A stretch of DNA of 64,000 nucleotides from Clostridia bacterium (GCA_017616435.1 JAFZYC010000045.1:59541-123540); one strand, 5' to 3'; positions 47,714 through 64,000 are shown, counted from the stretch's first letter. Notes: generated from the sequence alone by a model not told the origin. A program made the numbers and translations.

Positions 47714-47748
47714 ACATGGGTATTATCACATACCCGAAAGGAACCCCA

Positions 47749-49269
47749 ATGGAACGCATCGTAATACTCGATTTCGGCGCCCAGTACAACCAGCTCATAG
47801 CGCGCAGAGTGCGTGAGCAGGGCGTGTATTCGGAGCTTCTTCCGCCCATGTCCCCTATCGAGAGGATAAAGGGCGAGGGGCTCTCCGGCGTCATACTCTC
47901 CGGCTCCCCCGACAGCGTATATGCCGAGGACGGCCGCAGATGCCTGCCCGAGGTATTCTCGCTCGGAGTGCCGGTATTGGGCATCTGCTACGGCATGCAG
48001 CTCATGACGCACATGCTGGGCGGCAAGGTCGAAAAGGCCCCCGTAAGGGAGTACGCCGGCGTCACCGCGCATTTTGAGGCATCTCCCCTGTTTGCGGATA
48101 TGCCCGATTCCACCGTGTGGATGAGCCATAACGATATGGTCACCCGCGTGCCGGAGGGCTTCTCCGTCATCGCCTCCACCGCGGACTGCCCCATCGCCGC
48201 CATGGAGAACGAGGCAAGGCGCCTTTACGCCGTGCAGTTCCATCCGGAGGTCGCGCATACCGAATACTGCGCAGCCTTTTTCCGCAACTTCGTGCACGGA
48301 ATATGCGGCTGTGAAGGCGGCTGGAGCCCCGAAGGCCTTATCGGCGAGCTCGTCGACGGCATACGTGCGCGGGTCGGCGACCGCCGCGTCGTAGCGGGGC
48401 TGTCGGGAGGCGTGGATTCCTCCGTCGCGGCGGCGCTCGTATCGAAGGCCGTAGGCGACCGCCTGACCTGCATATTCGTCGATCACGGTCTTTTGAGGAA
48501 GAACGAGGCGGAGGAGGTCATGCACTTCTACCGCGAAAACATGGGCCTCAATGTTATCGAGGTCGACGCGAAGGATTATTTCCTCGCGCGGCTCGCGGGG
48601 GTCACGGAGCCCGAGAACAAGCGCAAGATAATCGGCGAGAGCTTCGTCCGCGTGTTCGAGCGAGAGGCGAAGAAGATCGGCGGCGCCGAGCTGCTTCTGC
48701 AGGGCACCATCTACCTCGACGTCATAGAATCCGGCACAGGCGGCGCTTCCGTCATAAAGAGCCATCACAACGTGGGCGGCCTGCCCGAAAAGTTCGGCTT
48801 TGAGCTTTTGGAGCCCCTGCGCCCCTTCTTCAAGGACGAGGTCCGCGCGATAGGCGAAGCCCTGGGCATGCCGAAGGAGCTCGTCTGGCGCCAGCCCTTC
48901 CCCGGCCCCGGCCTCGGGATACGCGTGCTCGGCGATATAACCGATGAAAAGCTCGAAATACTGCGCGATTCCGACTGGATCCTCCGCGACGAGATAAAGA
49001 AGGCCGGCCTCGACCGCGAGATCTGGCAGTACTTTACCGTGTTCACGGGCATGCGCTCCGTAGGCGTCATGGGCGACAGCCGCACATACGATTACGCGAT
49101 AGGCGTCCGCGCCGTCGTCTCCACCGACGCCATGACCGTCGAGTTCGCCGAGATCCCCCATAAGATCCTCCGCAGGATCGCGAACCGCATAATCGCCGAA
49201 GTCCCCCACGTCAACCGCGTGGTCTACGATATCACGGATAAACCTCCGGGAACGATAGAATGGGAGTAA
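47749..49269 (+). CDS. guaA: GMP synthase (glutamine-hydrolysing), full length
   Basis: The track start is 47716. ATG 47749 gives MERIVILDFGAQY. GATase Cys in GICYGMQL. ATP-PPase P-loop SGGVDSS. C-terminus PPGTIEWE. Confidence 0.93.
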   Translation: MERIVILDFGAQYNQLIARRVREQGVYSELLPPMSPIERIKGEGLSGVILSGSPDSVYAEDGRRCLPEVFSLGVPVLGICYGMQLMTHMLGGKVEKAPVREYAGVTAHFEASPLFADMPDSTVWMSHNDMVTRVPEGFSVIASTADCPIAAMENEARRLYAVQFHPEVAHTEYCAAFFRNFVHGICGCEGGWSPEGLIGELVDGIRARVGDRRVVAGLSGGVDSSVAAALVSKAVGDRLTCIFVDHGLLRKNEAEEVMHFYRENMGLNVIEVDAKDYFLARLAGVTEPENKRKIIGESFVRVFEREAKKIGGAELLLQGTIYLDVIESGTGGASVIKSHHNVGGLPEKFGFELLEPLRPFFKDEVRAIGEALGMPKELVWRQPFPGPGLGIRVLGDITDEKLEILRDSDWILRDEIKKAGLDREIWQYFTVFTGMRSVGVMGDSRTYDYAIGVRAVVSTDAMTVEFAEIPHKILRRIANRIIAEVPHVNRVVYDITDKPPGTIEWE

Positions 49270-52856: not shown

Positions 52857-53506
52857 TGCTAAAAAACGCCTATTTCATAACGGGGAACGCCTACGCCGGG
52901 AAATCGACGATGATAAAGCTGCTCGCCGAAAAATACGGCGGGATACTCTGCGGGGAGAACTGGCACGACGCCTGGCCCGAGAGGCTGGATAAAGACGAGT
53001 TCCCGGGGCTTTGTTACACGCGCGACCTTGTTGACTGGCACGATTTTATAAGGCGCACTCCGGAGGAGTACCTTGCCTGGATCGAGCAGGTGCAGAAGGA
53101 ATGCGAGATACTGGAGCTCAGGATGCTCCCCGCGCTCTGCGAAGAGGGCCGGCCGGTGTTCGTCGACACCAACATCCGCACTGAGACGCTTAAAAGGATC
53201 GCGGATCCCGGGCACGTGCTCGTTATGCTTGCGGAGCCCGAGGTCTCCGTAAGGCGGTTTTTCGAGCGTGAGGACGCGGAAAAGCAGTTCCTCTACCGCC
53301 TTATAATGGAGGAGTCCGACCCCGCCGCCGCGATGGAGAACTACCGCCGCGGGCTCGCGCTGATCAACTCGCGGGAGAAGTACGACGAGCTGCTTCATTC
53401 CGGGTTCGCCGTGATAAAAAGGGACGACTCACGGAGCGAAAAGGAAACGCTCGCGCTGGTCGAGGAGGCTTTCGGGCTTAACTCCGCCGGGCGCGGCCGA
53501 TGTTGA
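52853..53506 (+). CDS. P-loop NTPase/kinase-like protein
   Basis: The track start is 52706. ATG 52853 overlaps the upstream stop (ATGA). Walker A GNAYAGKST. 217 aa. Confidence 0.6.
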   Translation: MMLKNAYFITGNAYAGKSTMIKLLAEKYGGILCGENWHDAWPERLDKDEFPGLCYTRDLVDWHDFIRRTPEEYLAWIEQVQKECEILELRMLPALCEEGRPVFVDTNIRTETLKRIADPGHVLVMLAEPEVSVRRFFEREDAEKQFLYRLIMEESDPAAAMENYRRGLALINSREKYDELLHSGFAVIKRDDSRSEKETLALVEEAFGLNSAGRGRC

Positions 53507-53573
53507 CCGTGCGGCCTTCGCGGGTTATAATCGATAAGAAAACAATGTTATTATTATAGTTTTGGAGGACGAT

Positions 53574-55268
53574 ATGGAAAAGTTCAAAGACCTGGTCTAC
53601 ACAAGGCCCGACGTAAAGCAGATCAACGGGGAGTTCTCGCGCCTGCTGAAGGAGTTCAAGGCCGCGAAGAGCGCCGAGGAAGCGGACAAAGCGTTCCTCG
53701 GCTGGATGAAGATACTCGAAAAGAACTCCACGCTCTTTACTATCGCATCCATCCGCAACACGATGAACATGAAGGACGAGTTCTACGACAAGGAGATCAA
53801 GTTCTGCAACCGGACCATGCCACGGCTCATGCTGAAAATGAAGACCGCGGGCAAGGCGATGCTGAAGAGCCCCTTCCGCCCCCAGCTGGAGGAGAAGTAC
53901 GGAAAGCACTATTTCAAATCCATCGAGATCGAGATGGACCTCTTCAAGCCCGCGATCGTATTGGATTCCATTCGCGAATCGAATCTCGGCACGGAGTATT
54001 CGAAGACCGCCGCGGGCTGCTCCGTGGAGTTCATGGGCGAGACCTGCAATTTCTACGGCCTGCTCCGCCACATGCAGTCCACCGACCGCGCGGAGAGGAA
54101 GGCGGCGTTCGAGGCCTGGGCGAAGCTCTACGAGGGCATATCCGGAAAGCTCGACGAGCAGTATGACAAGCTTGTCAAAACGCGCTGCAGTATGGCAAAA
54201 AAGCTCGGCTTCAAGAGCTATATCGACTACATCTACCTTTCGAGGGGGCGCTACGATTACGGTCCCAAGGAGGTGGAGGCCTTCCGCGAGGCGGTGAGGA
54301 CATACATCACCCCGCTCTGCGAAAAGATGTACAAGGCGCAGGCGGAAAGGCTCGGGCTCGACAGGCTCGAATGGTATGACGAGGGCCTCGTTTTCCCGGA
54401 CGGCAACGCGAATCCCATAGGCACGCCTAAGGAGCTTGCGGAAAAGGCGCTCCGCATGTATGAGGAGATGTCCCCCGAAACGGGCGAGTATTTCAACTTC
54501 ATGGTCGATCACGAGCTGTTCGATCTCGAAACGCGCGAGAACAAGCACCTCGGCGGCTACTGCACGTTCCTGCCGGATGAAAAGGCGCCGTTCATATTCT
54601 CCAACTTCAACGGCACTTCCGCGGACGTCGACGTGCTCACGCACGAGGCTGGCCACGCATTCGAGGCTTATTATTCCTCCCGCCGCCAGCCCATCGCGCC
54701 GCTGACCGCTTCCACGAGCGAGATCAACGAGATCCATTCGATGAGCATGGAGTATTTCGCATACCCGTATCTCGAGCGCTTCTTCGGCGAGAACACGGAC
54801 AAATACCGCTTCGCGCATTTCTGCAGCTCGATAAAGGCCATCCCCTACCTCGTCTCCGTTGACGAGTTCCAGCACAGGGTATTCGAGAACCCCCGTGCGA
54901 CTGCCGCAGAAAGGCGCGGCTTCTGGCGCGAGATCGAGAAGAAGTACATGCCCTGGCGGCACTACGACGGCAACGAGTTCCTTGAGGGCGGAGGCTTCTG
55001 GATGCAGAAACAGCATGTGTTCCTCTACCCCTTCTATTACGTCGATTACGCAATGGCGGGGCTCGACGCGCTCTCCCTCTATAAGATGCAGGTCGAGGGC
55101 GGCGACGCCTGGGGCAGCTACATAAAGCTCTGCTCTATGGGCGGCCGCTACGGCTATTTCGAAACGCTCGAGCGCGCGGGGATCCCCATTCCCTTGGGCG
55201 CCGATACGGTCCGGTCGCTCGCCGAGTTCGCCGAGCGCCGCGCCGCGGAGCTTGAAGCGAAGCTCTGA
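53574..55268 (+). CDS. Oligoendopeptidase F family (M3B), second paralogue
   Basis: The track start TTG 53562 is unlikely. ATG 53574 has GGAGG 5 nt upstream. HExxH motif: THEAGHAFE. Confidence 0.85.
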   Translation: MEKFKDLVYTRPDVKQINGEFSRLLKEFKAAKSAEEADKAFLGWMKILEKNSTLFTIASIRNTMNMKDEFYDKEIKFCNRTMPRLMLKMKTAGKAMLKSPFRPQLEEKYGKHYFKSIEIEMDLFKPAIVLDSIRESNLGTEYSKTAAGCSVEFMGETCNFYGLLRHMQSTDRAERKAAFEAWAKLYEGISGKLDEQYDKLVKTRCSMAKKLGFKSYIDYIYLSRGRYDYGPKEVEAFREAVRTYITPLCEKMYKAQAERLGLDRLEWYDEGLVFPDGNANPIGTPKELAEKALRMYEEMSPETGEYFNFMVDHELFDLETRENKHLGGYCTFLPDEKAPFIFSNFNGTSADVDVLTHEAGHAFEAYYSSRRQPIAPLTASTSEINEIHSMSMEYFAYPYLERFFGENTDKYRFAHFCSSIKAIPYLVSVDEFQHRVFENPRATAAERRGFWREIEKKYMPWRHYDGNEFLEGGGFWMQKQHVFLYPFYYVDYAMAGLDALSLYKMQVEGGDAWGSYIKLCSMGGRYGYFETLERAGIPIPLGADTVRSLAEFAERRAAELEAKL

Positions 55269-55292
55269 AAAACACGGCCCAGAGGTGTCGCG

Positions 55293-55739
55293 ATGATAGA
55301 GCTCAAACCCATTAACGAGGACAATTTCATCGACGCATTTAATTTGAAGCTTGCCCCGGGGCAGGAGGCTTTCGTTTCGCACCCGATACGGAGCCTTGCG
55401 CAGGCCTACGTTTACAGGGATCAATGCCGGCCCTTCGGCATATATGCGGACGGGAAGATGGTAGGCTACGTAATGGTGATCTACGACTATGATATCCCCG
55501 AGTACGATATCTGGCACATGATGATCGACGGATCCGTGCAGGGACGCGGCTTCGGCGGCCGAGCGCTCGATCTCGTGCTCGATTATATCAGGACAAAGCC
55601 CTTCGGCGATTCCTCAAGGGTCGCGCTGACCTGCAATAAGGACAACGGTTTCGCGAGAAAGCTTTATGAAAGCAGGGGCTTTGCCGCGACGGGCGTCTGT
55701 GATGAGGATGAGATCGAGCTGGCGCTGACGATCGGATAG
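55293..55739 (+). CDS. GNAT-family N-acetyltransferase
   Basis: 148 aa. Acetyl-CoA motif QGRGFGGRAL. Confidence 0.75.
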   Translation: MIELKPINEDNFIDAFNLKLAPGQEAFVSHPIRSLAQAYVYRDQCRPFGIYADGKMVGYVMVIYDYDIPEYDIWHMMIDGSVQGRGFGGRALDLVLDYIRTKPFGDSSRVALTCNKDNGFARKLYESRGFAATGVCDEDEIELALTIG

Positions 55740-56366: not shown

Positions 56367-57113
56367 ATGACCTCATTCAGGGAAGAGATAATCGGATATG
56401 TTTTAAAGAAATACGGCGCCTCGCCCGAGTATCTTTGGATGAGGTATCCCGATTACGCCGTGTTCCGCCACGCGGACAACGGCAAGTGGTTCGGGATAGT
56501 GATGGACGTCAAGAGGAGCAAGCTGGGGCTCGCCGGCTATGGAGCGGTCGATATCCTGAACGTAAAGGTCAAGGACCCGCTCCTTGCGGATCTTCTTATA
56601 AAGCAGCCGGGTTATCTGCGCGGGTATCACATAAGCCGGGGAAACTGGGTATCGATACTGCTTGACGGAACTGTGGAGCTCTGTGAAATCGAGCGGCTGC
56701 TCGACGGCAGCTTTGCCGCGACCGCCTCCGCCGAGAAAAAGCGCAGGATACGCCCGAAGAAGGAATGGCTCGTGCCCGCGAACCCCAAGTATTACGACAT
56801 CGAGCACGCGTTCGACGAAAAGGACGAGATCGCGTGGAAGCAGGGCGCGGGGATAATAAAGGGCGATACGGTGTTCATGTATGTCGCAGCCCCCGTCAAG
56901 GCGGTGCTGTACAAATGCGCCGTGACGGAGACGGATATCCCCTATCGGTTCGACGACGGCAGGCTTCAGATAAGGGCGCTGATGCGCATCAAGCTCATAA
57001 AGCGGTATGCGCCGGACAGGTTCACGTTCGCCGTGCTCGGCTCCGAATACGGCATATATGCCGTGCGCGGCCCGCGCGGTATCCCGAAGAGCCTTAGCGA
57101 CGCGCTTAAATGA
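56367..57113 (+). CDS. MmcQ/YjbR domain fused to a PUA-like domain (paralogue of 20594-21343)
   Basis: 248 aa, colinear with 20594-21343 along its full length (e.g. PDYAVFRHADNGKWFGIVMDV, WLVPANPKYYDI, GDTVFMYVAAPV). Confidence 0.65.
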   Translation: MTSFREEIIGYVLKKYGASPEYLWMRYPDYAVFRHADNGKWFGIVMDVKRSKLGLAGYGAVDILNVKVKDPLLADLLIKQPGYLRGYHISRGNWVSILLDGTVELCEIERLLDGSFAATASAEKKRRIRPKKEWLVPANPKYYDIEHAFDEKDEIAWKQGAGIIKGDTVFMYVAAPVKAVLYKCAVTETDIPYRFDDGRLQIRALMRIKLIKRYAPDRFTFAVLGSEYGIYAVRGPRGIPKSLSDALK

Positions 57114-57128
57114 GGAAGGAGCGGACTT

Positions 57129-57779
57129 ATGCTTGAAAGGATAGGCGAGTTCTTCGAAGCGAGGCTCGAAGGCTACGATGAGCATCAGCTTACGACCATC
57201 GAGTCCGCGCGCGAGTTCTATCCGTTCACGGCGGCTTGTCTGCCGAGAGATAAAAACGCCCGCGTGCTCGACCTCGGCTGCGGCACGGGGCTGGAGCTCG
57301 AGGAGTATTTCAGGCTCGTACCCGATGCGGAAGTGACCGGCATCGACCTCGCGCCGGGCATGCTGCGTGCGCTTGGAAAAAAGTTCCCCGATAAGGCCCT
57401 TACGCTCATCACCGGGTCGTATTTCGACGTGCCCTTCGGGGAGGCCATGTTCGACGCGGCGGTATCGGTCGAATCTCTCCACCATTTCACAAAGGAAGAA
57501 AAGATCCCGCTCTACATAAAGCTCAAGCACGCGCTGAAGCGGGACGGTTATTTTATACTTACGGATTATTTCTCCCTCTCCGAAGAGGAGGAGGCCTCTT
57601 ACAGGCGGGAGCTTCTGCGCCTTATCGGGGAGCAGGGCCTTCCCGAGGACGGATCGTACCATTTCGACACGCCTTTGACCGCGGCTCATGAAACGGAGGC
57701 GCTCCTCGCCGCCGGGTTCGCCTCGGTCGAGGTGCTCAAAAGCTGGGGCCATACGTTCACGCTCAAAGCCAAGCGGTGA
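57129..57779 (+). CDS. Class I SAM-dependent methyltransferase
   Basis: 216 aa. Motif I VLDLGCGTG. Confidence 0.75.
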   Translation: MLERIGEFFEARLEGYDEHQLTTIESAREFYPFTAACLPRDKNARVLDLGCGTGLELEEYFRLVPDAEVTGIDLAPGMLRALGKKFPDKALTLITGSYFDVPFGEAMFDAAVSVESLHHFTKEEKIPLYIKLKHALKRDGYFILTDYFSLSEEEEASYRRELLRLIGEQGLPEDGSYHFDTPLTAAHETEALLAAGFASVEVLKSWGHTFTLKAKR

Positions 57780-57830: not shown

Positions 57831-57860
57831 CTACGCAATAATTTTTCGGAGGTAAAAGCC

Positions 57861-58844
57861 ATGCCCATTCTTGTCAGACCCGAAAACATGGAGCGCATCA
57901 CCACCCCCGCCCTCGCGGAGGCGTTCATAGCCGAACAGATCGCGGATATCCGCGCGCAGGTCGGCGATAAAAAGGTGCTGCTCGCCCTCTCCGGCGGCGT
58001 CGATTCTTCCGTCGTCGCGGCGCTGCTTATAAGAGCCATAGGAAAGCAGCTTGTCTGCGTGCACGTCAATCACGGCCTGCTTCGCAAGGGCGAGCCGGAA
58101 CAGGTGATAAAGGTCTTCCGCGGCGAGATGGACGCCAATCTCATCTACGTCGACGCGGTCGACAGGTTCCTTGACAAGCTCGCCGGGATATCCGATCCCG
58201 AGACGAAGCGAAAGATCATCGGCGGAGAGTTCATAGACGTATTCGCCGAGGAGGCGAGGAAGCTCGACGGCATCGAGTTCCTTGCGCAGGGCACGATCTG
58301 GCCCGACATACTCGAATCCGAAAAGGGCATTAAGGCGCACCACAACGCCGGCGGCCTGCCCGAGGATCTGAAGTTCGCTCTGGTCGAGCCGGTCCGCATA
58401 CTCTTCAAGGACGAGGTCCGCGTGGTCGGCAAGGCGTTGGGTCTTCCCGACAACATGGTCTACCGTCAGCCCTTCCCCGGCCCCGGTCTCGGCGTAAGAT
58501 GCCTCGGCGCCATCACCCGCGACAGGCTCGAGGCCGTGCGCGAATCCGACGCGATACTGCGCGAGGAGTTCGCCGCGAACGGCCTTGCGGGCAAGGTCTG
58601 GCAGTATTTCACGATAGTGCCCGATTTCAAGTCCGTCGGCATCAAGGACGGCCGCCGCTGCGACGAGTGGCCCGTCATAATCCGCGCCGTCAACACGCGC
58701 GACGCGATGACCGCCGCCGTGGAGGACGTCCCCTTTGCGCTTCTTGAGCGCATCACCGCCCGCATCACCCATGAGGTCAAGGGCGTGAACCGCGTGCTTT
58801 ACGATCTCACGCCGAAGCCCACCGGGACGATCGAATGGGAATAA
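57861..58844 (+). CDS. GMP synthase ATP-pyrophosphatase + dimerisation domains only (GuaA C-terminal-type protein, no GATase domain)
   Basis: 327 aa. P-loop SGGVDSS, QPFPGPGLGVR, C-terminus PTGTIEWE. It is colinear with residues about 190-506 of guaA at 47749-49269. GVMGDSRTYDY is replaced by GIKDGRRCDEW. Confidence 0.85.
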   Translation: MPILVRPENMERITTPALAEAFIAEQIADIRAQVGDKKVLLALSGGVDSSVVAALLIRAIGKQLVCVHVNHGLLRKGEPEQVIKVFRGEMDANLIYVDAVDRFLDKLAGISDPETKRKIIGGEFIDVFAEEARKLDGIEFLAQGTIWPDILESEKGIKAHHNAGGLPEDLKFALVEPVRILFKDEVRVVGKALGLPDNMVYRQPFPGPGLGVRCLGAITRDRLEAVRESDAILREEFAANGLAGKVWQYFTIVPDFKSVGIKDGRRCDEWPVIIRAVNTRDAMTAAVEDVPFALLERITARITHEVKGVNRVLYDLTPKPTGTIEWE

Positions 58845-59011
58845 TCTCCAGACGCCGGAAAAGCTAATTAGAACATGGTTTTTTCAGAAGCGTGAACCGT
58901 CTTTGATAACGAATTGATAACAAGTCTCTGATCGTCATCATTCCCGTTCCGACCGGTTGTGGGGTAAAGGAATGATCCCAAGAGGCTTGCTGGAAAAGGA
59001 TCCGTATTATA

Positions 59012-59049
59012 AAGCCCTTCGCTGTGGATATGCAGCGGAGGGCTTTTAT
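59012..59049. terminator. Bidirectional hairpin terminator near the left end of the element
   Basis: 13-bp arms aagcccttcgctg (59012-59024) and cagcggagggctt (59033-59045), with one G-U pair and T-rich flanks on both strands. Confidence 0.65.
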
Positions 59050-59080
59050 GTATTTCATAATCAGTTTTCGTAATATGAAG

Positions 59081-59611
59081 TCAGTCAGTCTCGAGCTTGT
59101 CCTTGAAGGCTTCAACAAGCGTATCGCTGAGTTCAGCGGACGGAACGCTTGCCCAGTTCTGGGTGGTGTCGTACTTGGGATAGTTGTAGCGCCAACGGTT
59201 GTACTCTTCCCTGCTCATTTCTCCCCTGCGGGTCTTGTCGGACATGGCGGCCCAAGCGAGCACCATCTGAGATATGCTTGCGGCGTCCCTGCCCTTGCGC
59301 GGATCGAAGCGGAGCGCAACGTCGCCGTCGCGGTTCTCGACCGTAAGGCCATAGCGATCCTCGAGCGTGAACAGAGTGTGCATAAGCCCGAGATAGCTGT
59401 CGATATCGGGAACGTCAAGAGCAAGAGGCGAGACCTCGAGCACGGAAGCAAGTGCGTTTGTCAGCTCTTCCTTCGGAGTGCGCGCTCCGGTCTCATACTG
59501 CGTCATGCGGATATCCGCCGTCTTTTCGGGAAGACCTGCGAGCGTCCCAAGGTACTTCTGCGTCATTCCGCGCAGATTGCGGATATAACGGATCCTCTCT
59601 CCAATAGCCAT
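59081..59611 (-). CDS. XRE/Cro-CI-family HTH regulator with a C-terminal extension
   Basis: 176 aa. N-terminus MAIGERIRYIRNLRGMTQKYLGTLAG. It is divergent from the xis/int promoter. Confidence 0.8.
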   Translation of the reverse strand: MAIGERIRYIRNLRGMTQKYLGTLAGLPEKTADIRMTQYETGARTPKEELTNALASVLEVSPLALDVPDIDSYLGLMHTLFTLEDRYGLTVENRDGDVALRFDPRKGRDAASISQMVLAWAAMSDKTRRGEMSREEYNRWRYNYPKYDTTQNWASVPSAELSDTLVEAFKDKLETD

Positions 59612-59712
59612 AATAAACCTCCATAGCCTGTTGTTACTATAAGCATAGCATATTAGTTTAATGATTTCAATTGTATAAACAAATATATTTTATTTTTAGG
59701 GAACCAAAGCGC

Positions 59713-59741
59713 TTGACATTACGTTATATGTTTAGTATAAT
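59713..59741 (+). promoter_or_regulatory. Consensus sigma-A promoter driving xis-int
   Basis: TTGACA (59713-59718), 17 nt spacer, TATAAT (59736-59741), inside a very AT-rich divergent intergenic region. Confidence 0.7.
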
Positions 59742-59862
59742 TGATAAAGTGCACATTTTTGTTTATGGCGTATTCTACCTGTGACATGATGCTTAGATGA
59801 GACTGCATCGATACGGCCGAGTGCTTTATCAACTGCTCAGCAGCATGGAAGGAGGTGAGAGT

Positions 59863-60063
59863 ATGCCTAATTTTTTACGAGCAGATGAGGTTGCTAAGAT
59901 CCTTGGTGTATCCAAGCCCTACGCTTACAAGCTTATCCGAAAAATGAACGAAGAGCTTAAGGCAAAGGGATTCATAACGATATCCGGAAGGATCAGCAGC
60001 CAGTATTTGAACGAAAGGTTCTATGGAACCGGAAAGGAGGAAAAAGAGAATGCCGGTATTTAA
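59863..60063 (+). CDS. Excisionase-type helix-turn-helix DNA-binding protein
   Basis: The track start is 59797. ATG 59863 has a GGAAGGAGGTGA RBS. The 66-aa product starts MPNFLRADEVAKILGVSKPYAYKLIRKMN. Confidence 0.7.
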   Translation: MPNFLRADEVAKILGVSKPYAYKLIRKMNEELKAKGFITISGRISSQYLNERFYGTGKEEKENAGI

Positions 60064-61123
60064 GAACAACGACAACGGAACATGGTATGTAATGGCCTGG
60101 TACACGAACTGGAAGGGCGAACGCAAGCAGAAATGCAAGCGCGGCTTTTCAACCAAGCGGGAAGCTCAGGAATGGGAACGCATCTTCAAAATGCAGAGCG
60201 CCGGGGATATGGACATGACCTTCGAAGCCTTTACGGAGCTTTACGAAAAGGATATCCGCCCGAGGCTCAAGGAAAACACGTGGCTCACGAAGGAGCACAT
60301 CATCAAAACGAAGCTCCTGCCGTTTTTCGGGAAGCGGAACATCAGCGAGATCACCGCAAAGGACGTGATCGCTTGGCAGAACGAGCTGCTTGCCTATCGG
60401 GATGAAAAGAAGCGGCCCTATTCCCAGACGTATCTGAAAACGGTCCACAATCAGCTCAGTGCGATATTCAATCACGCTGTGCGGCACTATGAGCTCCGCG
60501 CCAACCCCGCCGCCAAAGCGGGAAGCATGGGCGATAAGGACGGCGGCAACATCAGCTTCTGGACTAAGGATGAGTACAAGCGCTTTGCCGATGAGATGAT
60601 GGACAAGCCCATATCCTACTACGCCTTCGAAATGCTCTACTGGTGCGGGATACGTGAGGGCGAGCTGCTGGCGCTGACGCCTGCGGATTTCGACTTCAAG
60701 GCCGGTACAGTCAAGATCAGCAAATCGTATCAGCGGCTTCACGGCAAGGATGTGATCACGAGCCCGAAGACGAAGAAGAGCAACCGCACTGTGAAGATGC
60801 CCCCGTTCCTCTGCGAGGAGATACAGGATTATCTGAAAATGCAGTACGGCCTCGGCAGGACGGACCGTATCTTCCCCATCACCAAGAGCTATCTGCACCG
60901 TGAGATGGACCGCGGCTCAAAGGCCGCCGGAGTAAAGCGCATCCGTGTTCACGATCTTCGCCACAGCCACGTTTCACTGCTGATCGACATGGGATTCACT
61001 CCCGTCGCCATTGCGGACAGGCTCGGTCACGAAAGCATCGAGATCACCCTGCGCTACGCACACCTGTTCCCGTCAAAACAGACGGAAATGATTGAAAAAC
61101 TTGAACATGAAAGGATAGATTGA
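60050..61123 (+). CDS. int: Tyrosine site-specific integrase (Tn916-like, with an N-terminal AP2/arm-binding domain)
   Basis: ATG 60050 has an AAAGGAGG RBS. N-terminus NGTWYVMAWYTNWKGERKQKCKRGFSTKREA. Catalytic motifs HDLRHSH, LGH and RYAHL (Tyr). Confidence 0.88.
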   Translation: MPVFKNNDNGTWYVMAWYTNWKGERKQKCKRGFSTKREAQEWERIFKMQSAGDMDMTFEAFTELYEKDIRPRLKENTWLTKEHIIKTKLLPFFGKRNISEITAKDVIAWQNELLAYRDEKKRPYSQTYLKTVHNQLSAIFNHAVRHYELRANPAAKAGSMGDKDGGNISFWTKDEYKRFADEMMDKPISYYAFEMLYWCGIREGELLALTPADFDFKAGTVKISKSYQRLHGKDVITSPKTKKSNRTVKMPPFLCEEIQDYLKMQYGLGRTDRIFPITKSYLHREMDRGSKAAGVKRIRVHDLRHSHVSLLIDMGFTPVAIADRLGHESIEITLRYAHLFPSKQTEMIEKLEHERID

Positions 61124-61126
61124 ATT

Positions 61127-61453
61127 ATGTCAGCCAAAAACCGAGACGAACACGGACGCTTCCGGAATATTACCGTCGGATTCCGCGTTTCGCCGGAAGA
61201 AAACGAGCAGATCAATACGGCCGTCGCGCTGTCGGGTCTGCCCAAGCAGGAATACTGCTACAGAAAATGCCTGAACCGCGATATCGTGGTTCAGGGGAAC
61301 CCGATGGTTTACAAGGCCCTGCGGGATCAACTCGCCGCCGTGCTCGATGAACTCAGGCGCATCGAAGCCGCCGGCGATATCCGTGACGAGCTTTTTGAAA
61401 ACATCGAGCTTATCACGAAAACACTGCTCGGTATGAAGGAGGGATGCTCGTGA
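61127..61453 (+). CDS. MobC-like / ribbon-helix-helix mobilisation accessory protein
   Basis: 108 aa. ITVGFRVSPEENEQINTAVALSGLPKQEYCYRKCL fits the R-L-T-P-E-E...S-x-Y-x-R MobC pattern. Confidence 0.55.
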   Translation: MSAKNRDEHGRFRNITVGFRVSPEENEQINTAVALSGLPKQEYCYRKCLNRDIVVQGNPMVYKALRDQLAAVLDELRRIEAAGDIRDELFENIELITKTLLGMKEGCS

Positions 61454-62595
61454 GTGATGGAAAAGAAAAGATGACCGCCGAAGAAGTATCTGTTGGCGCA
61501 GATACAAGGCAGTCACCACTCTCAACTTCGAATATTATAGCAGATTACGATGGTTTTTGCAACACCGATGAAGAAGAAATCTTCATCGATCCGCGAAAGC
61601 TCGATCCGCGCTATATCGAAACGGTCACGATGCAGGGTCTGCTCGACACGGCTTTCATGCCCAGACTGCCCATAATCGAGGGCTTCCTCTACCCCGGCAC
61701 CTACCTCATGGCAGGCTCGCCGAAGATAGGAAAATCCTTCCTCGTGACTCAGATCAGCTATGCGATAGCGACGGGAACTCCTCTCTGGGGAATGCCGGTC
61801 AGGCAGGGCTCCGTGCTCTACCTCGCGTTGGAGGACGATTGCCAGAGGCTCCAGAAGCGCGTCTCGCGCATGTTCGGTATCGAAGGCACCGCCGCCCTCC
61901 ATTTCGCGACGCAGGCAAGGTCGGTCGAAAACGGCCTCATGCAGCAGCTTGAGGGCTTCATCCGCGAGCATAACGATACAAAGCTCATAATCATCGATAC
62001 GCTGCAGAAGGTGCGCGGCGACGATGGAGAAAAGTACAGCTATGCTAACGACTATCAGATCATCTCAAGCCTCAAAGCGCTGACGGATGCAAACCCGATC
62101 GCGGTACTGATCGTTCATCACACCCGCAAGCAGGACGCCGAGGATAAATTCGATATGATCTCCGGCACTACCGGGCTGCTCGGCTCCGCGGACGGCGCGT
62201 TCCTCCTCCGGAAGGAGAAGCGGACAAGCCCCGAGGCGACGCTCGACGTGGTCGGCCGCGATCAGCAGGATCTGAGGTTCAAGCTGCTCTTCAGCTACGA
62301 GACCTGTACCTTCGATCTCACCGAAACGGAGACCGAGCTGTGGAAGGATCCGCCCGATCCCACCCTCGACGCAGTAGCGGCTCTGGTTAATGCGGAGTCT
62401 CCGGTATGGGAAGGCACGGCTACGGAGTTGGCGCATAGGATCGGAAGCGAAATGCTCCCGCATCATCTTTCCAGAAAGCTGAACGTAAATGTCGCGAGGC
62501 TGCTTGCCGAGCATGGCGTTCTGTATGCGCCTTCCCGCTCGCACGACGGACGCAGGGTGAGGCTTTACTTCGCAGGAGGAAAGGGCAGCCGGTGA
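61444..62595 (+). CDS. RecA-fold AAA_25/RepA-like ATPase
   Basis: 383 aa. Walker A GSPKIGKSF and Walker B KLIIIDTLQ. The exact start is ambiguous (61444, 61450 or 61471). Confidence 0.7.
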   Translation: MLVSDGKEKMTAEEVSVGADTRQSPLSTSNIIADYDGFCNTDEEEIFIDPRKLDPRYIETVTMQGLLDTAFMPRLPIIEGFLYPGTYLMAGSPKIGKSFLVTQISYAIATGTPLWGMPVRQGSVLYLALEDDCQRLQKRVSRMFGIEGTAALHFATQARSVENGLMQQLEGFIREHNDTKLIIIDTLQKVRGDDGEKYSYANDYQIISSLKALTDANPIAVLIVHHTRKQDAEDKFDMISGTTGLLGSADGAFLLRKEKRTSPEATLDVVGRDQQDLRFKLLFSYETCTFDLTETETELWKDPPDPTLDAVAALVNAESPVWEGTATELAHRIGSEMLPHHLSRKLNVNVARLLAEHGVLYAPSRSHDGRRVRLYFAGGKGSR

Positions 62596-62925
62596 CGCTC
62601 CGCGACGCTCGTGACGCTGATTTGCACACTATCAGATTTAGCGTCACGGAGCGACACGCGCGGGGCTTTGGCCTCAAAAATGCCTTACGATATAAGGGTA
62701 AAATTGCGTGACGCTAAAATATCGCTGAGCGTCACGCGCGACGGTAAACCCATCAAGGCGATAAGGTGAGTTTATCGAAGAAGCCCGTTATTCAAGAAGG
62801 GGCGGAGGCTAAGTACTTCCCCTCCGCTCCTTCGGTGGGCAGGGCCGGCCCCGCAGGGCGCAACAGCACTTTTGGCGGGCGAAGACTGACAAAAGTGCTT
62901 TTGCGTTACTTTCGCGGAAAGTAAC
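62592..62925. other. Candidate oriT/origin region: CGTGACGCT iteron-like motifs plus inverted repeats upstream of the relaxase gene
   Basis: gtgacgct occurs at 62592-62599, 62611-62618 and 62708-62715. The complement agcgtcac occurs at 62640-62647 and 62728-62735. Inverted repeats: 62706-62715/62728-62737; agcacttttg/caaaagtgct at 62865-62874/62890-62899; gttactttc/gaaagtaac at 62905-62913/62917-62925. Confidence 0.5.
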
Positions 62926-62951
62926 AAAGGCATTAACCCGAGGTGAATAAT

Positions 62952-64000
62952 ATGAGAAGAACGATAAGTGCAATGGTCGGGAAGGGCTCCGCCAACCACA
63001 ACAGCCGCAGATTTATAGCGGAGAACGTGGACGGCTCCCGTACCCGATACAACATAAGTTACATCGATGAACCCCTCAAAAAGGTTTATCACGAACTATT
63101 CGACGAAGCGCTTGAGCGCTACAACTCCAAGCAAAAACGCAAGGACCGGATCATCCCCGATTACTATGAGAAGATCCGGTTAAGCCGGCAGGAGAAGCCG
63201 TTTCACGAGATCATACTGCAGATAGGCGATAAGAGCAACATGGCCTCCGGAACGGAAAACGGCGAACTGGCAAGGGAGGTGCTCGACGAGTACTTCAAGG
63301 GCTTTAAGGCCCGCAACCCGAACCTCCGTGTGTTCTCCGCTCACATCCACATGGACGAAGCGACGCCGCATATCCACATCGACTTCGTCCCGTTCACGAC
63401 CGGAAGCAAGCGAGGTCTCGATACCCGCGTTTCCCTGAAGCAGGCATTGGCCGCGCAGGGATTCAAGGGAGGCACGCGCGGCGATACCGAGTGGGCGCAG
63501 TGGGTTGCGAGCGAGAAGCTCGAGCTCGCCGCCGTGATGGAGCGTTACGGTATCGAGTGGGAGCAGAAGGGCACTCACGAGGAGCACCTCTCCGTGCTCG
63601 ACTTCAAGAAGCAGGAGCGGGCGAAGGAGCTCGCCGCGCTCGAAGCCGAGCTTGCTGCAAAGCAGGATGAGCTCTCTGATGTACAACGCCGACTGGATAG
63701 CGCAGACACCGCCGAGGAGAAGCTCGCAGGCATAGAGTACAAGCTCAGCCGCGATGAGGATTATGCGGTCCCCGAACCGCCAAAACTCATGAGTGCGAAG
63801 ACCTACCGCGAGCGGTTCGTCGTCCCGCTTGTCGATCGGCTAAAGCAGCTCGTGCGCGCGGTGCTCGTCTCCTGCGTTAAAGCGTGGGACAAAATCGCGC
63901 TGCTGCGCGGCGAGAACGAGGAACTCGAAAACGAGAACCGCCGGCTGGAAGAGCGGCTTGCTTCGCTCGAAGAGAAGAACGACCAATTACACAAACAGAC
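62952..64000 (+). CDS. MobV-family (Pre/Mob) relaxase, 3' end outside the window
   Basis: It is not in the ORF track because it has no stop in the window. ATG 62952 has an AGGTGA RBS. Hand translation gives MRRTISAMVGKGSANHNSRRF (HxxR) and HIHMDEATPHIHIDFVP (HxDExxPHxH), then a coiled-coil tail. The frame is open to nt 64000. Confidence 0.82.
   Translation, partial: MRRTISAMVGKGSANHNSRRFIAENVDGSRTRYNISYIDEPLKKVYHELFDEALERYNSKQKRKDRIIPDYYEKIRLSRQEKPFHEIILQIGDKSNMASGTENGELAREVLDEYFKGFKARNPNLRVFSAHIHMDEATPHIHIDFVPFTTGSKRGLDTRVSLKQALAAQGFKGGTRGDTEWAQWVASEKLELAAVMERYGIEWEQKGTHEEHLSVLDFKKQERAKELAALEAELAAKQDELSDVQRRLDSADTAEEKLAGIEYKLSRDEDYAVPEPPKLMSAKTYRERFVVPLVDRLKQLVRAVLVSCVKAWDKIALLRGENEELENENRRLEERLASLEEKNDQLHKQ

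Follow-up and report, generated by a model that had tools for sequence, protein, structure and literature searches.

What kind of mobile element lies at the right-hand end of a 64,000-nt stretch of DNA from Clostridia bacterium (GCA_017616435.1, JAFZYC010000045.1:59541-123540; hereafter the window), where is it inserted and what would it need in order to move? A preliminary description had proposed an integrative mobilizable element (IME) carrying xis-int genes and a relaxase of the MobV type, and this proposal is supported: the genes are intact, their motifs are present and relatives of the element are bounded by a 12-bp repeat. The occurrence of a mobile element at the window end is confirmed, with its features lying where they had been placed. 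We conclude that positions 58833-64000, the part of the element that is seen, very probably represent the left 5.2 kb of an intact IME, inserted site-specifically at the last 12 nt of a guaA paralog. The kind is already known; ATE-1, IMESag-rpsI and Tn4451 are relatives in concept, and the element is a further member.

Relatives of the relaxase were collected by a scan of species-representative genomes, one per species, which gave at least 560 of them. Locus-level counts (distance from guaA, synteny) refer to the best 80 of these, and synteny of the backbone was scored on the 67 loci having enough upstream sequence. Related loci and contigs outside the window are designated by L-numbers. Three complete relatives were read end to end (8.73 kb, the L022 group; 12.65 kb, L007; 17.8 kb, L010/L004). 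Two metagenome contigs, L001 and L002, were found by exact-protein look-up to encode the same NikA-like protein as the window, and similar look-ups with the integrase and the AAA_25 protein of the window gave no exact match.

The comparison with these two contigs carries much of the argument. L001 is 98.8% identical to the window from position 58819 on, and L002 is 99.94% identical over 60525-64000. The L001 copy is situated behind a canonical guaA gene, the product of which is only 52% identical to the 327-aa protein encoded next to the element in the window, and similarity between the two sequences collapses upstream of the last guaA codons. The presence of near-identical copies behind two different guaA genes thus implies recent movement or transfer, as judged from the alignments. 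The differences from L001 are unevenly distributed: 52 out of 65 fall in 58833-59480, and the stretch from 59480 to 64000 shows 13 differences (99.7% identity). The divergent left ~650 nt covers the attL spacer and two-thirds of the XRE gene, on its 3′ side. This distribution suggests that recombination among members of the family has given the element a mosaic left end.

The insertion boundary emerges from the same junction and from the complete relatives. In relatives, the att core is a 12-bp direct repeat, GARTKKGARTAA, consisting of the last three guaA codons and the stop codon. It bounds 16 copies of an 8.73-kb sibling in different hosts, as well as the L007 and L010/L004 elements. The core was recognised by comparing identical elements in different hosts; a search for a long att repeat (26 nt, up to 6 mismatches) found none. 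On the right, copies of the 8.73-kb sibling stop aligning at a common base; the left ends of the alignments vary because the guaA genes also align, and the left junction itself, directly after the guaA stop codon, is identical in all copies. Within a single locus, the two cores of this sibling are not always the same, as would follow from strand exchange inside the repeat. The preliminary description had started the element at 58845; the true boundary is the core at 58833-58844, 12 nt further left. It had also called for a search for attR, which was found in L007, L010/L004 and the L022 group; that of the present copy is situated beyond the window.

Of GMP synthase, the target gene encodes only the half with the ATP-pyrophosphatase and the C-terminal dimerisation domain, and not the glutamine-amidotransferase domain. 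Its product is 53% identical to that of the canonical guaA gene of the window (47716-49269, 517 aa), and orthologues (89–92% identical) precede related elements in L007, L009 and L012. More generally, the end of guaA is found ~4.1–4.4 kb upstream of the relaxase gene in 46 of the 80 best loci. No match was obtained in Rfam and tRNA scans of the element region, so that the insertion target is no RNA gene, and neither the leader nor the origin of transfer (oriT) described below belongs to a known RNA family. Base composition changes across the junction (GC 0.42–0.51 at 58750-60250 against 0.55–0.65 in the flanks), and the ~250 nt directly after the stop codon of the guaA paralog are non-coding, followed by packed genes on the + strand behind one divergent gene.

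Sequences expected of an integrase attachment site lie just inside the left boundary (Table 1). The TTGATAAC repeats are presumed to be bound by the Arm-DNA-bind_4 domain of the integrase. The TGATAAC motif occurs twice in attL and three times (one inverted and two direct copies) ~100–130 nt inside attR of L007, L004 and L022. The motif TCCGTATTAT, a candidate accessory site for Xis or Int, similarly has an inverted copy 82 nt inside attR in relatives. Across the family, both ends of the element carry these arm-type motifs, which keep fixed distances within attR. By extrapolation, the attR of the present copy is expected to read GARTGGGARTAA, with TGTTATCA...TGATAACA...TGATAACA some 100–130 nt before it and ATAATACGGA some 82 nt before it. 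The terminator hairpin between the att end and the XRE gene is kept in L007, L010 and L022.

Backbone genes in the order XRE, xis, int, nikA, AAA_25 and mob are syntenic in 56 of 67 loci, with a TnpV gene coming next in most. The integrase is full length and possesses the catalytic residues R202, K240, H301, R304, H327 and Y336; it shows no sign of the inactivation that had been named as a finding against the proposal. Its description as Tn916-like proved to be loose. What it shares with the Tn916/Tn1549 type is a xis gene directly upstream of, and overlapping, int, together with the catalytic residues of tyrosine recombinases. On the other hand, its N-terminus is an Arm-DNA-bind_4 domain (PF14657), and no match to the family of the Tn916 N-terminal domain, presumably PF02920, was present among the matches listed. 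Tn1549 Int is matched only weakly (E 2e-9), in the core and catalytic domains, the best match of solved structure being another integrase, 3NKH. Unlike Int-Tn, which has low specificity (A+T-rich sites with variable coupling sequences), the enzyme is specific for the guaA 3′ end; relatives of the element insert at a single site, the last 12 nt of guaA, in 46 of the 80 loci.

As had been noted, the relaxase gene is open to the window edge: 349 of the expected 392 codons are inside, the full length of 392 aa being read from L001 and L002. The protein scores above the Pfam gathering cut-off and displays the motifs that characterize MOBV relaxases, motif I (HxxR) and motif III (HxDExxPHxH), here HNSR (H16 and R19) and HMDEATPHIH (residues 133-142), both invariant in 49 distinct relatives. 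We take H16 to be the nucleophile, by analogy with MobM. Motif III aligns with that of MobM of pMV158 (4LVI; E 0.0028), the N-terminal 215 residues are ~50% identical to Mob proteins of small mobilizable plasmids (from C. difficile, Blautia and others) and the C-terminus forms a long coiled coil. Upstream of the gene, the block AAAAGTGCTTTTGCGTTAC is nearly invariant in 40 distinct relatives. A long inverted repeat precedes it, and it is followed by a hairpin, GTTACTTTC-GCG-GAAAGTAAC (62905-62925), whose family consensus is GTTACTYTY...RARAGTAAC and two of whose base pairs show compensatory changes; as single-stranded DNA, this oriT stretch folds far better than shuffled sequences (z −4.7). 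By analogy with oriT of pMV158, a putative nick site is G62905/T62906 (TTTTGCG/TTAC). The element carries a relaxase and an oriT of its own, which are among the features by which an IME in the sense of Guedon et al. (2017) is recognised; as to another such feature, an integrase with flanking att sites, Int is intact and attL is defined by core and arm sites.

Table 1. Features of the element and of its target gene (window coordinates; cells are left empty where no strand applies)
Feature	Position	Strand	Evidence or remark
guaA paralog, att target	57861-58844	+	327 aa; GMP_synt_C 1.5e-34
attL core GAATGGGAATAA, crossover region	58833-58844		last four codons of the guaA paralog; junction alignment with L001
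Arm-type repeats TTGATAAC(N3)TTGATAAC	58903-58921	+	two direct copies
Conserved motif TCCGTATTAT	59001-59010	+	only occurrence in the 64-kb window
Terminator	59011-59046		G+C-rich 16-bp hairpin and T-run, between att end and 3′ end of the XRE gene
XRE-family regulator, 176 aa	59081-59611	-	HTH_3 4.7e-5; PHROG matches are transcriptional regulators
Control region	59675-59766	+	promoter and three TAAACAnATA copies
Leader, ~115 nt	59748-59862	+	potential pairing of its 5′ part with the xis start codon and ribosome-binding site
Xis, 66 aa, HTH_17-type recombination directionality factor	59863-60063	+	HTH_17 8.7e-6; phrog_989 5.6e-24
Tyrosine integrase, 357 aa	60050-61123	+	Arm-DNA-bind_4, Phage_int_SAM_3, Phage_integrase; phrog_1 4.6e-78
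NikA-like relaxosome accessory protein, 108 aa	61127-61453	+	PF21983 6.7e-11
AAA_25 (RecA-fold, RepA/DnaB-like) ATPase, 383 aa (381 if start is GTG at 61450)	61444-62595	+	PF13481 4.2e-28
Iteron-like array of GTGACGCT	62592-62737		candidate origin of replication or binding site of a relaxosome accessory protein
oriT	62859-62925	+	long inverted repeat 62859-62874/62890-62905, block AAAAGTGCTTTTGCGTTAC, hairpin
MobV (Mob_Pre, PF01076) relaxase	62952-64000, open at window edge	+	68 bits against a cut-off of 25.5

Would such an element be mobilizable only, or could it transfer itself? The preliminary description had reported no conjugation genes, and this holds: genes for a type IV secretion system (T4SS) or a coupling protein (VirB4, VirD4, TcpA-like) were found neither in 58833-64000 nor in the three complete relatives. 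A self-transmissible integrative and conjugative element (ICE), with T4SS and coupling-protein genes located past the window edge, would still fit the fact that the right part of this copy is outside the view and that the right end of its nearest lineage (L001, L090, L091) was not reached in 16.7 kb. However, the 12.5 kb that follow the relaxase gene in that lineage are free of T4SS and coupling-protein genes, the complete relatives consist of backbone and cargo only, and MobV relaxases are described as typical of mobilizable rather than conjugative elements in a review (PMC5704250). We therefore regard an ICE as very unlikely. An immobilised remnant, whose left end is intact but whose attR was lost or rearranged so that excision is impossible, is improbable to a lesser degree. 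It is consistent with the attR not being seen, and tandem arrays or decayed islands do occur at guaA (the L010/L004 tandem; the 8.6-kb integrase-free island of the window). Against it, all six genes are full length and retain their catalytic motifs, the promoter, arm sites and oriT are intact, and the 99.7–99.9% identity to copies that come from different samples and follow another guaA gene points to very recent movement.

The set of genes is also reminiscent of a phage satellite of the PICI type, or of an integrated plasmid, in which the repressor, xis-int and helicase-iteron module would serve phage-induced replication and packaging. Repressor, xis-int and a helicase with adjacent iterons do resemble the rep-ori module of SaPI/PICI, PHROG matches are strong (4e-167 for the relaxase and 1e-45 for the NikA-like protein), and the relaxase domain is ~50% identical to Mob of small plasmids of gut Clostridia. 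These PHROG families are, however, without assigned phage function; no terminase, capsid-morphogenesis or interference genes were found in any complete relative, and the element is equipped with a relaxase of its own, with an accessory protein and with an oriT that is conserved. As to a plasmid, integration at defined att sites argues against a free one. We find either origin scarcely credible. In favouring an intact IME, several points have to be set on the other side of the balance. The window ends inside the relaxase gene, so that the attR, size and cargo of this copy are outside the view, and at least 16.7 kb of the nearest lineage were read without reaching attR. Neither an excised form nor transfer nor a helper element was observed, the rest of the genome not having been searched for a helper. 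The HTH_17 match of Xis (26.4 bits) is just below the Pfam cut-off of 27 bits, the relaxase resembles the solved MobM around motif III only, and a replication role for the AAA_25 protein and the iterons is based on position and analogy only.

The regulatory region likewise agrees with the preliminary description: the divergent XRE gene (Pfam match), the promoter at 59713-59741 and the order xis-int are all present. This sigma-70 promoter (TTGACA-17-TATAAT) matches the consensus at 12 positions out of 12 and is the sole perfect match in the region. Operator-like copies of TAAACAnATA are located at 59676-59685, at 59725-59734, within the promoter spacer, and at 59755-59766; distant relatives keep the layout, with TTGACA, a motif in the spacer, TATAAT and then a palindrome. 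The XRE protein, made of an N-terminal HTH_3 domain and of a C-terminal part of ~110 aa without known domain, is the presumed repressor of the xis-int operon; its gene is divergent from that operon and syntenic in 60 of the 80 loci. Gene spacing downstream is tight (overlaps of 14 nt between xis and int and of 10 nt between nikA and the AAA_25 gene, with 3 nt separating int from nikA); xis, int, nikA and the AAA_25 gene are therefore read as one operon transcribed from the consensus promoter. The pairing proposed for the leader preceding xis is weakly supported (minimum free energy −39.3 kcal/mol, z −2.2). In many relatives (L022 6469-6916, L018, L024, L063 and others), a conserved leader of 180–450 nt separates the consensus promoter from xis. 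These long leaders are of two sequence types, for example ...CTGAATGACCGTCCGA... and ...CCGTCATATGTCACGGTAATGGC...GGGCAAATCGGAATGCGG..., and showed no match to an Rfam family; they may constitute an undescribed cis-regulatory RNA controlling excision.

Between int and the relaxase gene are two further proteins and a repeat array. The first protein had been called MobC-like; the role was correctly assigned, the family being NikA-like rather than MobC in Pfam, presumably of the ribbon-helix-helix type. The second was rightly recognised as a RecA-fold ATPase: it belongs to AAA_25, and its PHROG matches fall on DnaB-like helicases and on the helicase portion of phage primase-helicases. By analogy, it is presumed to be a replicative helicase or initiator for the excised circle. 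The array begins just before its stop codon and comprises three direct copies of GTGACGCT (62592-62618), an A+T-rich spacer, two inverted copies (62640-62657) and an inverted pair (62706-62737); 5 of the 9 exact GTGACGCT 8-mers of the 64-kb window are within these ~150 nt. Distant relatives possess three direct repeats, a spacer and two or three inverted repeats directly after the AAA_25 gene, with another repeat sequence. Such conservation of architecture with a differing repeat sequence is what would be expected if a protein and the sites that it binds had evolved together. A comparable layout of helicase and iterons is known from SaPI rep-ori modules. The AAA_25 protein and the iterons could thus be a helicase or initiator with its own origin, which would maintain the excised circle; alternatively, the GTGACGCT repeats might be binding sites of the NikA-like accessory protein. 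Two small open reading frames (ORFs) in the iteron/oriT spacer (62611-62769 and 62766-62924) were considered as genes and rejected. They have no family match and gene callers leave the region empty in L001; consequently, they were treated as non-coding.

The preliminary description had predicted accessory cargo, for resistance or defence, to the right of the relaxase gene. Relatives do carry such cargo at that place; for the present copy it is probable by comparison with copies that are 99% identical. L001 and L002 continue with the last 43 codons of the relaxase gene, a TnpV gene (PF14198, 9.6e-41) and genes for a YpsA-SLOG protein and a small HTH_3 protein, and the present copy is similarly expected to continue with these 43 codons, tnpV and then cargo. 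Further along, the L001 lineage encodes a 590-aa protein, a type III restriction subunit (PADLOC REase_III, 1.6e-80) and a fused PARIS AriAB (4e-160), and lastly an N6_N4 methyltransferase (type III Mod), a 147-aa protein and an AlbA_2/HATPase_c_4 regulator. The AriAB protein corresponds to NCBI MBO4562773.1, on a 133.7-kb contig of a metagenome-assembled genome; a metagenome scan with it returned only relatives of 44–49% identity on short contigs. By way of this protein, the contigs of L001 and of its sibling L091 were followed to their ends, and no attR was met within 16.7 kb. The gene for the 590-aa protein (L001 7155-8927, - strand) is flanked by the small HTH_3 gene and the type III restriction gene. 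Its product matches phrog_9827 (1e-43) and, faintly, DUF4365, with no PADLOC match, and is a candidate for an uncharacterised defence gene. Other relatives differ in cargo: L007 encodes a BREX-PglX-like protein (a weak match, possibly type IIG) and other methyltransferases, the first element of L010/L004 a 1615-aa protein without domain match, an AAA ATPase and a WYL regulator, and the L022 group an ABC-F ribosomal-protection protein and a Lnu(C/D/P)-like lincosamide nucleotidyltransferase. No serine recombinase was found in the complete relatives.

All of the best 80 relatives come from gut or rumen Clostridia and allies. Copies of the 8.73-kb sibling are 96–99.98% identical and occur in Blautia, Roseburia, Clostridium, Flavonifractor, Fusicatenibacter, Pseudoramibacter and others (L022 5634-14375; also L023, L029, L030, L032, L034, L035, L037, L038, L040, L043, L046-L050 and L053). 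Two elements can also share one guaA gene: a tandem pair extends from L010 5880 to L004 4885 (contig JAFPXD010000007.1), the attR core of the first, 17.8-kb element doubling as the attL of the second. In the window, the last 12 nt of the canonical guaA gene, GAATGGGAGTAA, also fit the att core, and no insertion is present there. The same pair of guaA genes exists in L012, where the two are only 1.2 kb apart; in the window they are separated by 8.6 kb of accessory genes (an APH-type kinase, an M3 peptidase, GNAT, flavodoxin, YjbR and a methyltransferase). A second, decayed element between the two was considered and rejected, this island consisting of ordinary accessory enzymes, with neither an integrase nor a backbone remnant. 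Long ORFs antisense to the M3 peptidase, the YjbR/methyltransferase and the guaA paralog genes (53478-55517, 56403-57752 and 57831-58772, all on the - strand) are by-products of high G+C and were not taken as genes.

How does the element compare with known systems? Among the closest is ATE-1 of Trueperella pyogenes, which, according to the review, is an element of ~10.8 kb with a tyrosine integrase, insertion at the guaA 3′ end, a MobV relaxase, no T4SS and tet(W), its cargo being downstream and its mobilisation occurring in trans, by IncP plasmids (PMC5704250). Compared by published description, the window element shares with it the tyrosine integrase, the guaA 3′ end and MobV in the absence of a T4SS. 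ATE-1 differs in its Actinomycetota host and in its cargo of tet(W) and a toxin-antitoxin pair, and the review lists no accessory factor or replication gene for it (PMC5704250). In the same source, GIsul2 and a Brucella IncP island have a tyrosine integrase at the guaA 3′ end and RepA for the excised form (PMC5704250). The likeness of these two to the window element, again by description, lies in the guaA-targeting tyrosine integrase and the replication gene; their hosts are Proteobacteria, and a MobP relaxase is listed for the related Burkholderia glumae IncP island (PMC5704250). Tn4451 is described there as using a large serine recombinase, TnpX, at 2-bp GA targets with low specificity (PMC5704250). 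Tn4451/Tn4453 resemble the window element in their Clostridia host and Mob_Pre (TnpZ-type) relaxase, and a TnpV-family protein follows the relaxase in relatives of the latter; they possess only the TnpX serine recombinase, whereas the window element has a tyrosine integrase, Xis and a 12-bp guaA core. TnpV takes its name from the Tn4451 protein.

In IMESag-rpsI of Streptococcus agalactiae, the MobV relaxase is functional, and pAMbeta1 mobilises the element. IMESag-rpsI and the guaA-targeting streptococcal Tyr_3 IMEs are similar to the window element in having a tyrosine integrase that acts at the 3′ end of a housekeeping gene. In streptococci, MobV was seen with a tyrosine integrase only in the presence of a second, MobT/Rep_trans protein (class 10), and IMEs with MobV alone had serine integrases; in the window element, by contrast, no relaxase accompanies MobV, and its neighbours are an AAA_25 protein and a tyrosine integrase. 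At the level of oriT, the reference is pMV158, the MOBV1 prototype, where nicking takes place at a G/T step (TGTG/TTATAC) that marks the 3′ end of the right arm in a long inverted repeat, with a direct repeat ACTTTA on either side. The window has the same layout, with TTGCG/TTAC, a flanking ACTTT repeat and the HxDExxPHxH motif. MobM differs, since motif III alone aligns (E 0.0028) and the window relaxase has a long coiled-coil C-terminus and a NikA-like partner; pMV158 is not known to need an accessory protein. With PICI/SaPI satellites the element has in common a rep-ori-like module; packaging genes were found in none of the complete relatives, which have a relaxase and an oriT instead.

An intact IME of this type might work as follows. 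The XRE regulator, bound to the three operator-like repeats around the promoter, would keep the xis-int-nikA-AAA_25 operon off. On de-repression, Int, acting at core and arm sites, and Xis would recombine attL with attR across GARTGGGARTAA to give a circle, which the AAA_25 ATPase may replicate after loading at the iteron array 3′ of its gene. The NikA-like protein and the MobV relaxase would assemble at oriT, with nicking probably at TTTTGCG/TTAC, and a co-resident conjugative element would supply the coupling protein and mating pore. In the recipient, Int would insert the circle behind guaA, where the element would bring a replacement stop codon and a terminator.

A broader proposal can be put forward only tentatively, and we consider it doubtful as a whole: the relatives may form a widespread family of self-replicating IMEs with a seven-gene backbone (XRE, Xis, Int, NikA-like, RepA-like helicase with iteron origin, MobV and TnpV), which would land at guaA or its paralog, pile up in tandem and act as a broad-host-range shuttle for interchangeable cargo, either for defence (fused PARIS, type III/IIG restriction, WYL-linked systems) or for resistance (ABC-F with Lnu), the long leader of many members being a new RNA that gates excision. 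In the literature, which was incompletely covered, no paper was found that names this Clostridia family, and none that deals with guaA and the integrases of mobilizable elements in Lachnospiraceae. IMEs probably outnumber ICEs and are poorly catalogued outside streptococci. The finding does not change current concepts; its value lies in a well-delimited example and in the breadth of the family, which occurs in hundreds of species of gut and rumen Clostridia and for which it provides a clean anatomy (core, arm sites, operator-flanked promoter, candidate origin of replication, and oriT with a predicted nick). Since a sibling carrying ABC-F and lincosamide resistance is distributed across many human-gut genera and the nearest relatives carry PARIS and type III restriction, the family is a plausible route by which resistance and phage-defence genes may pass between commensals.

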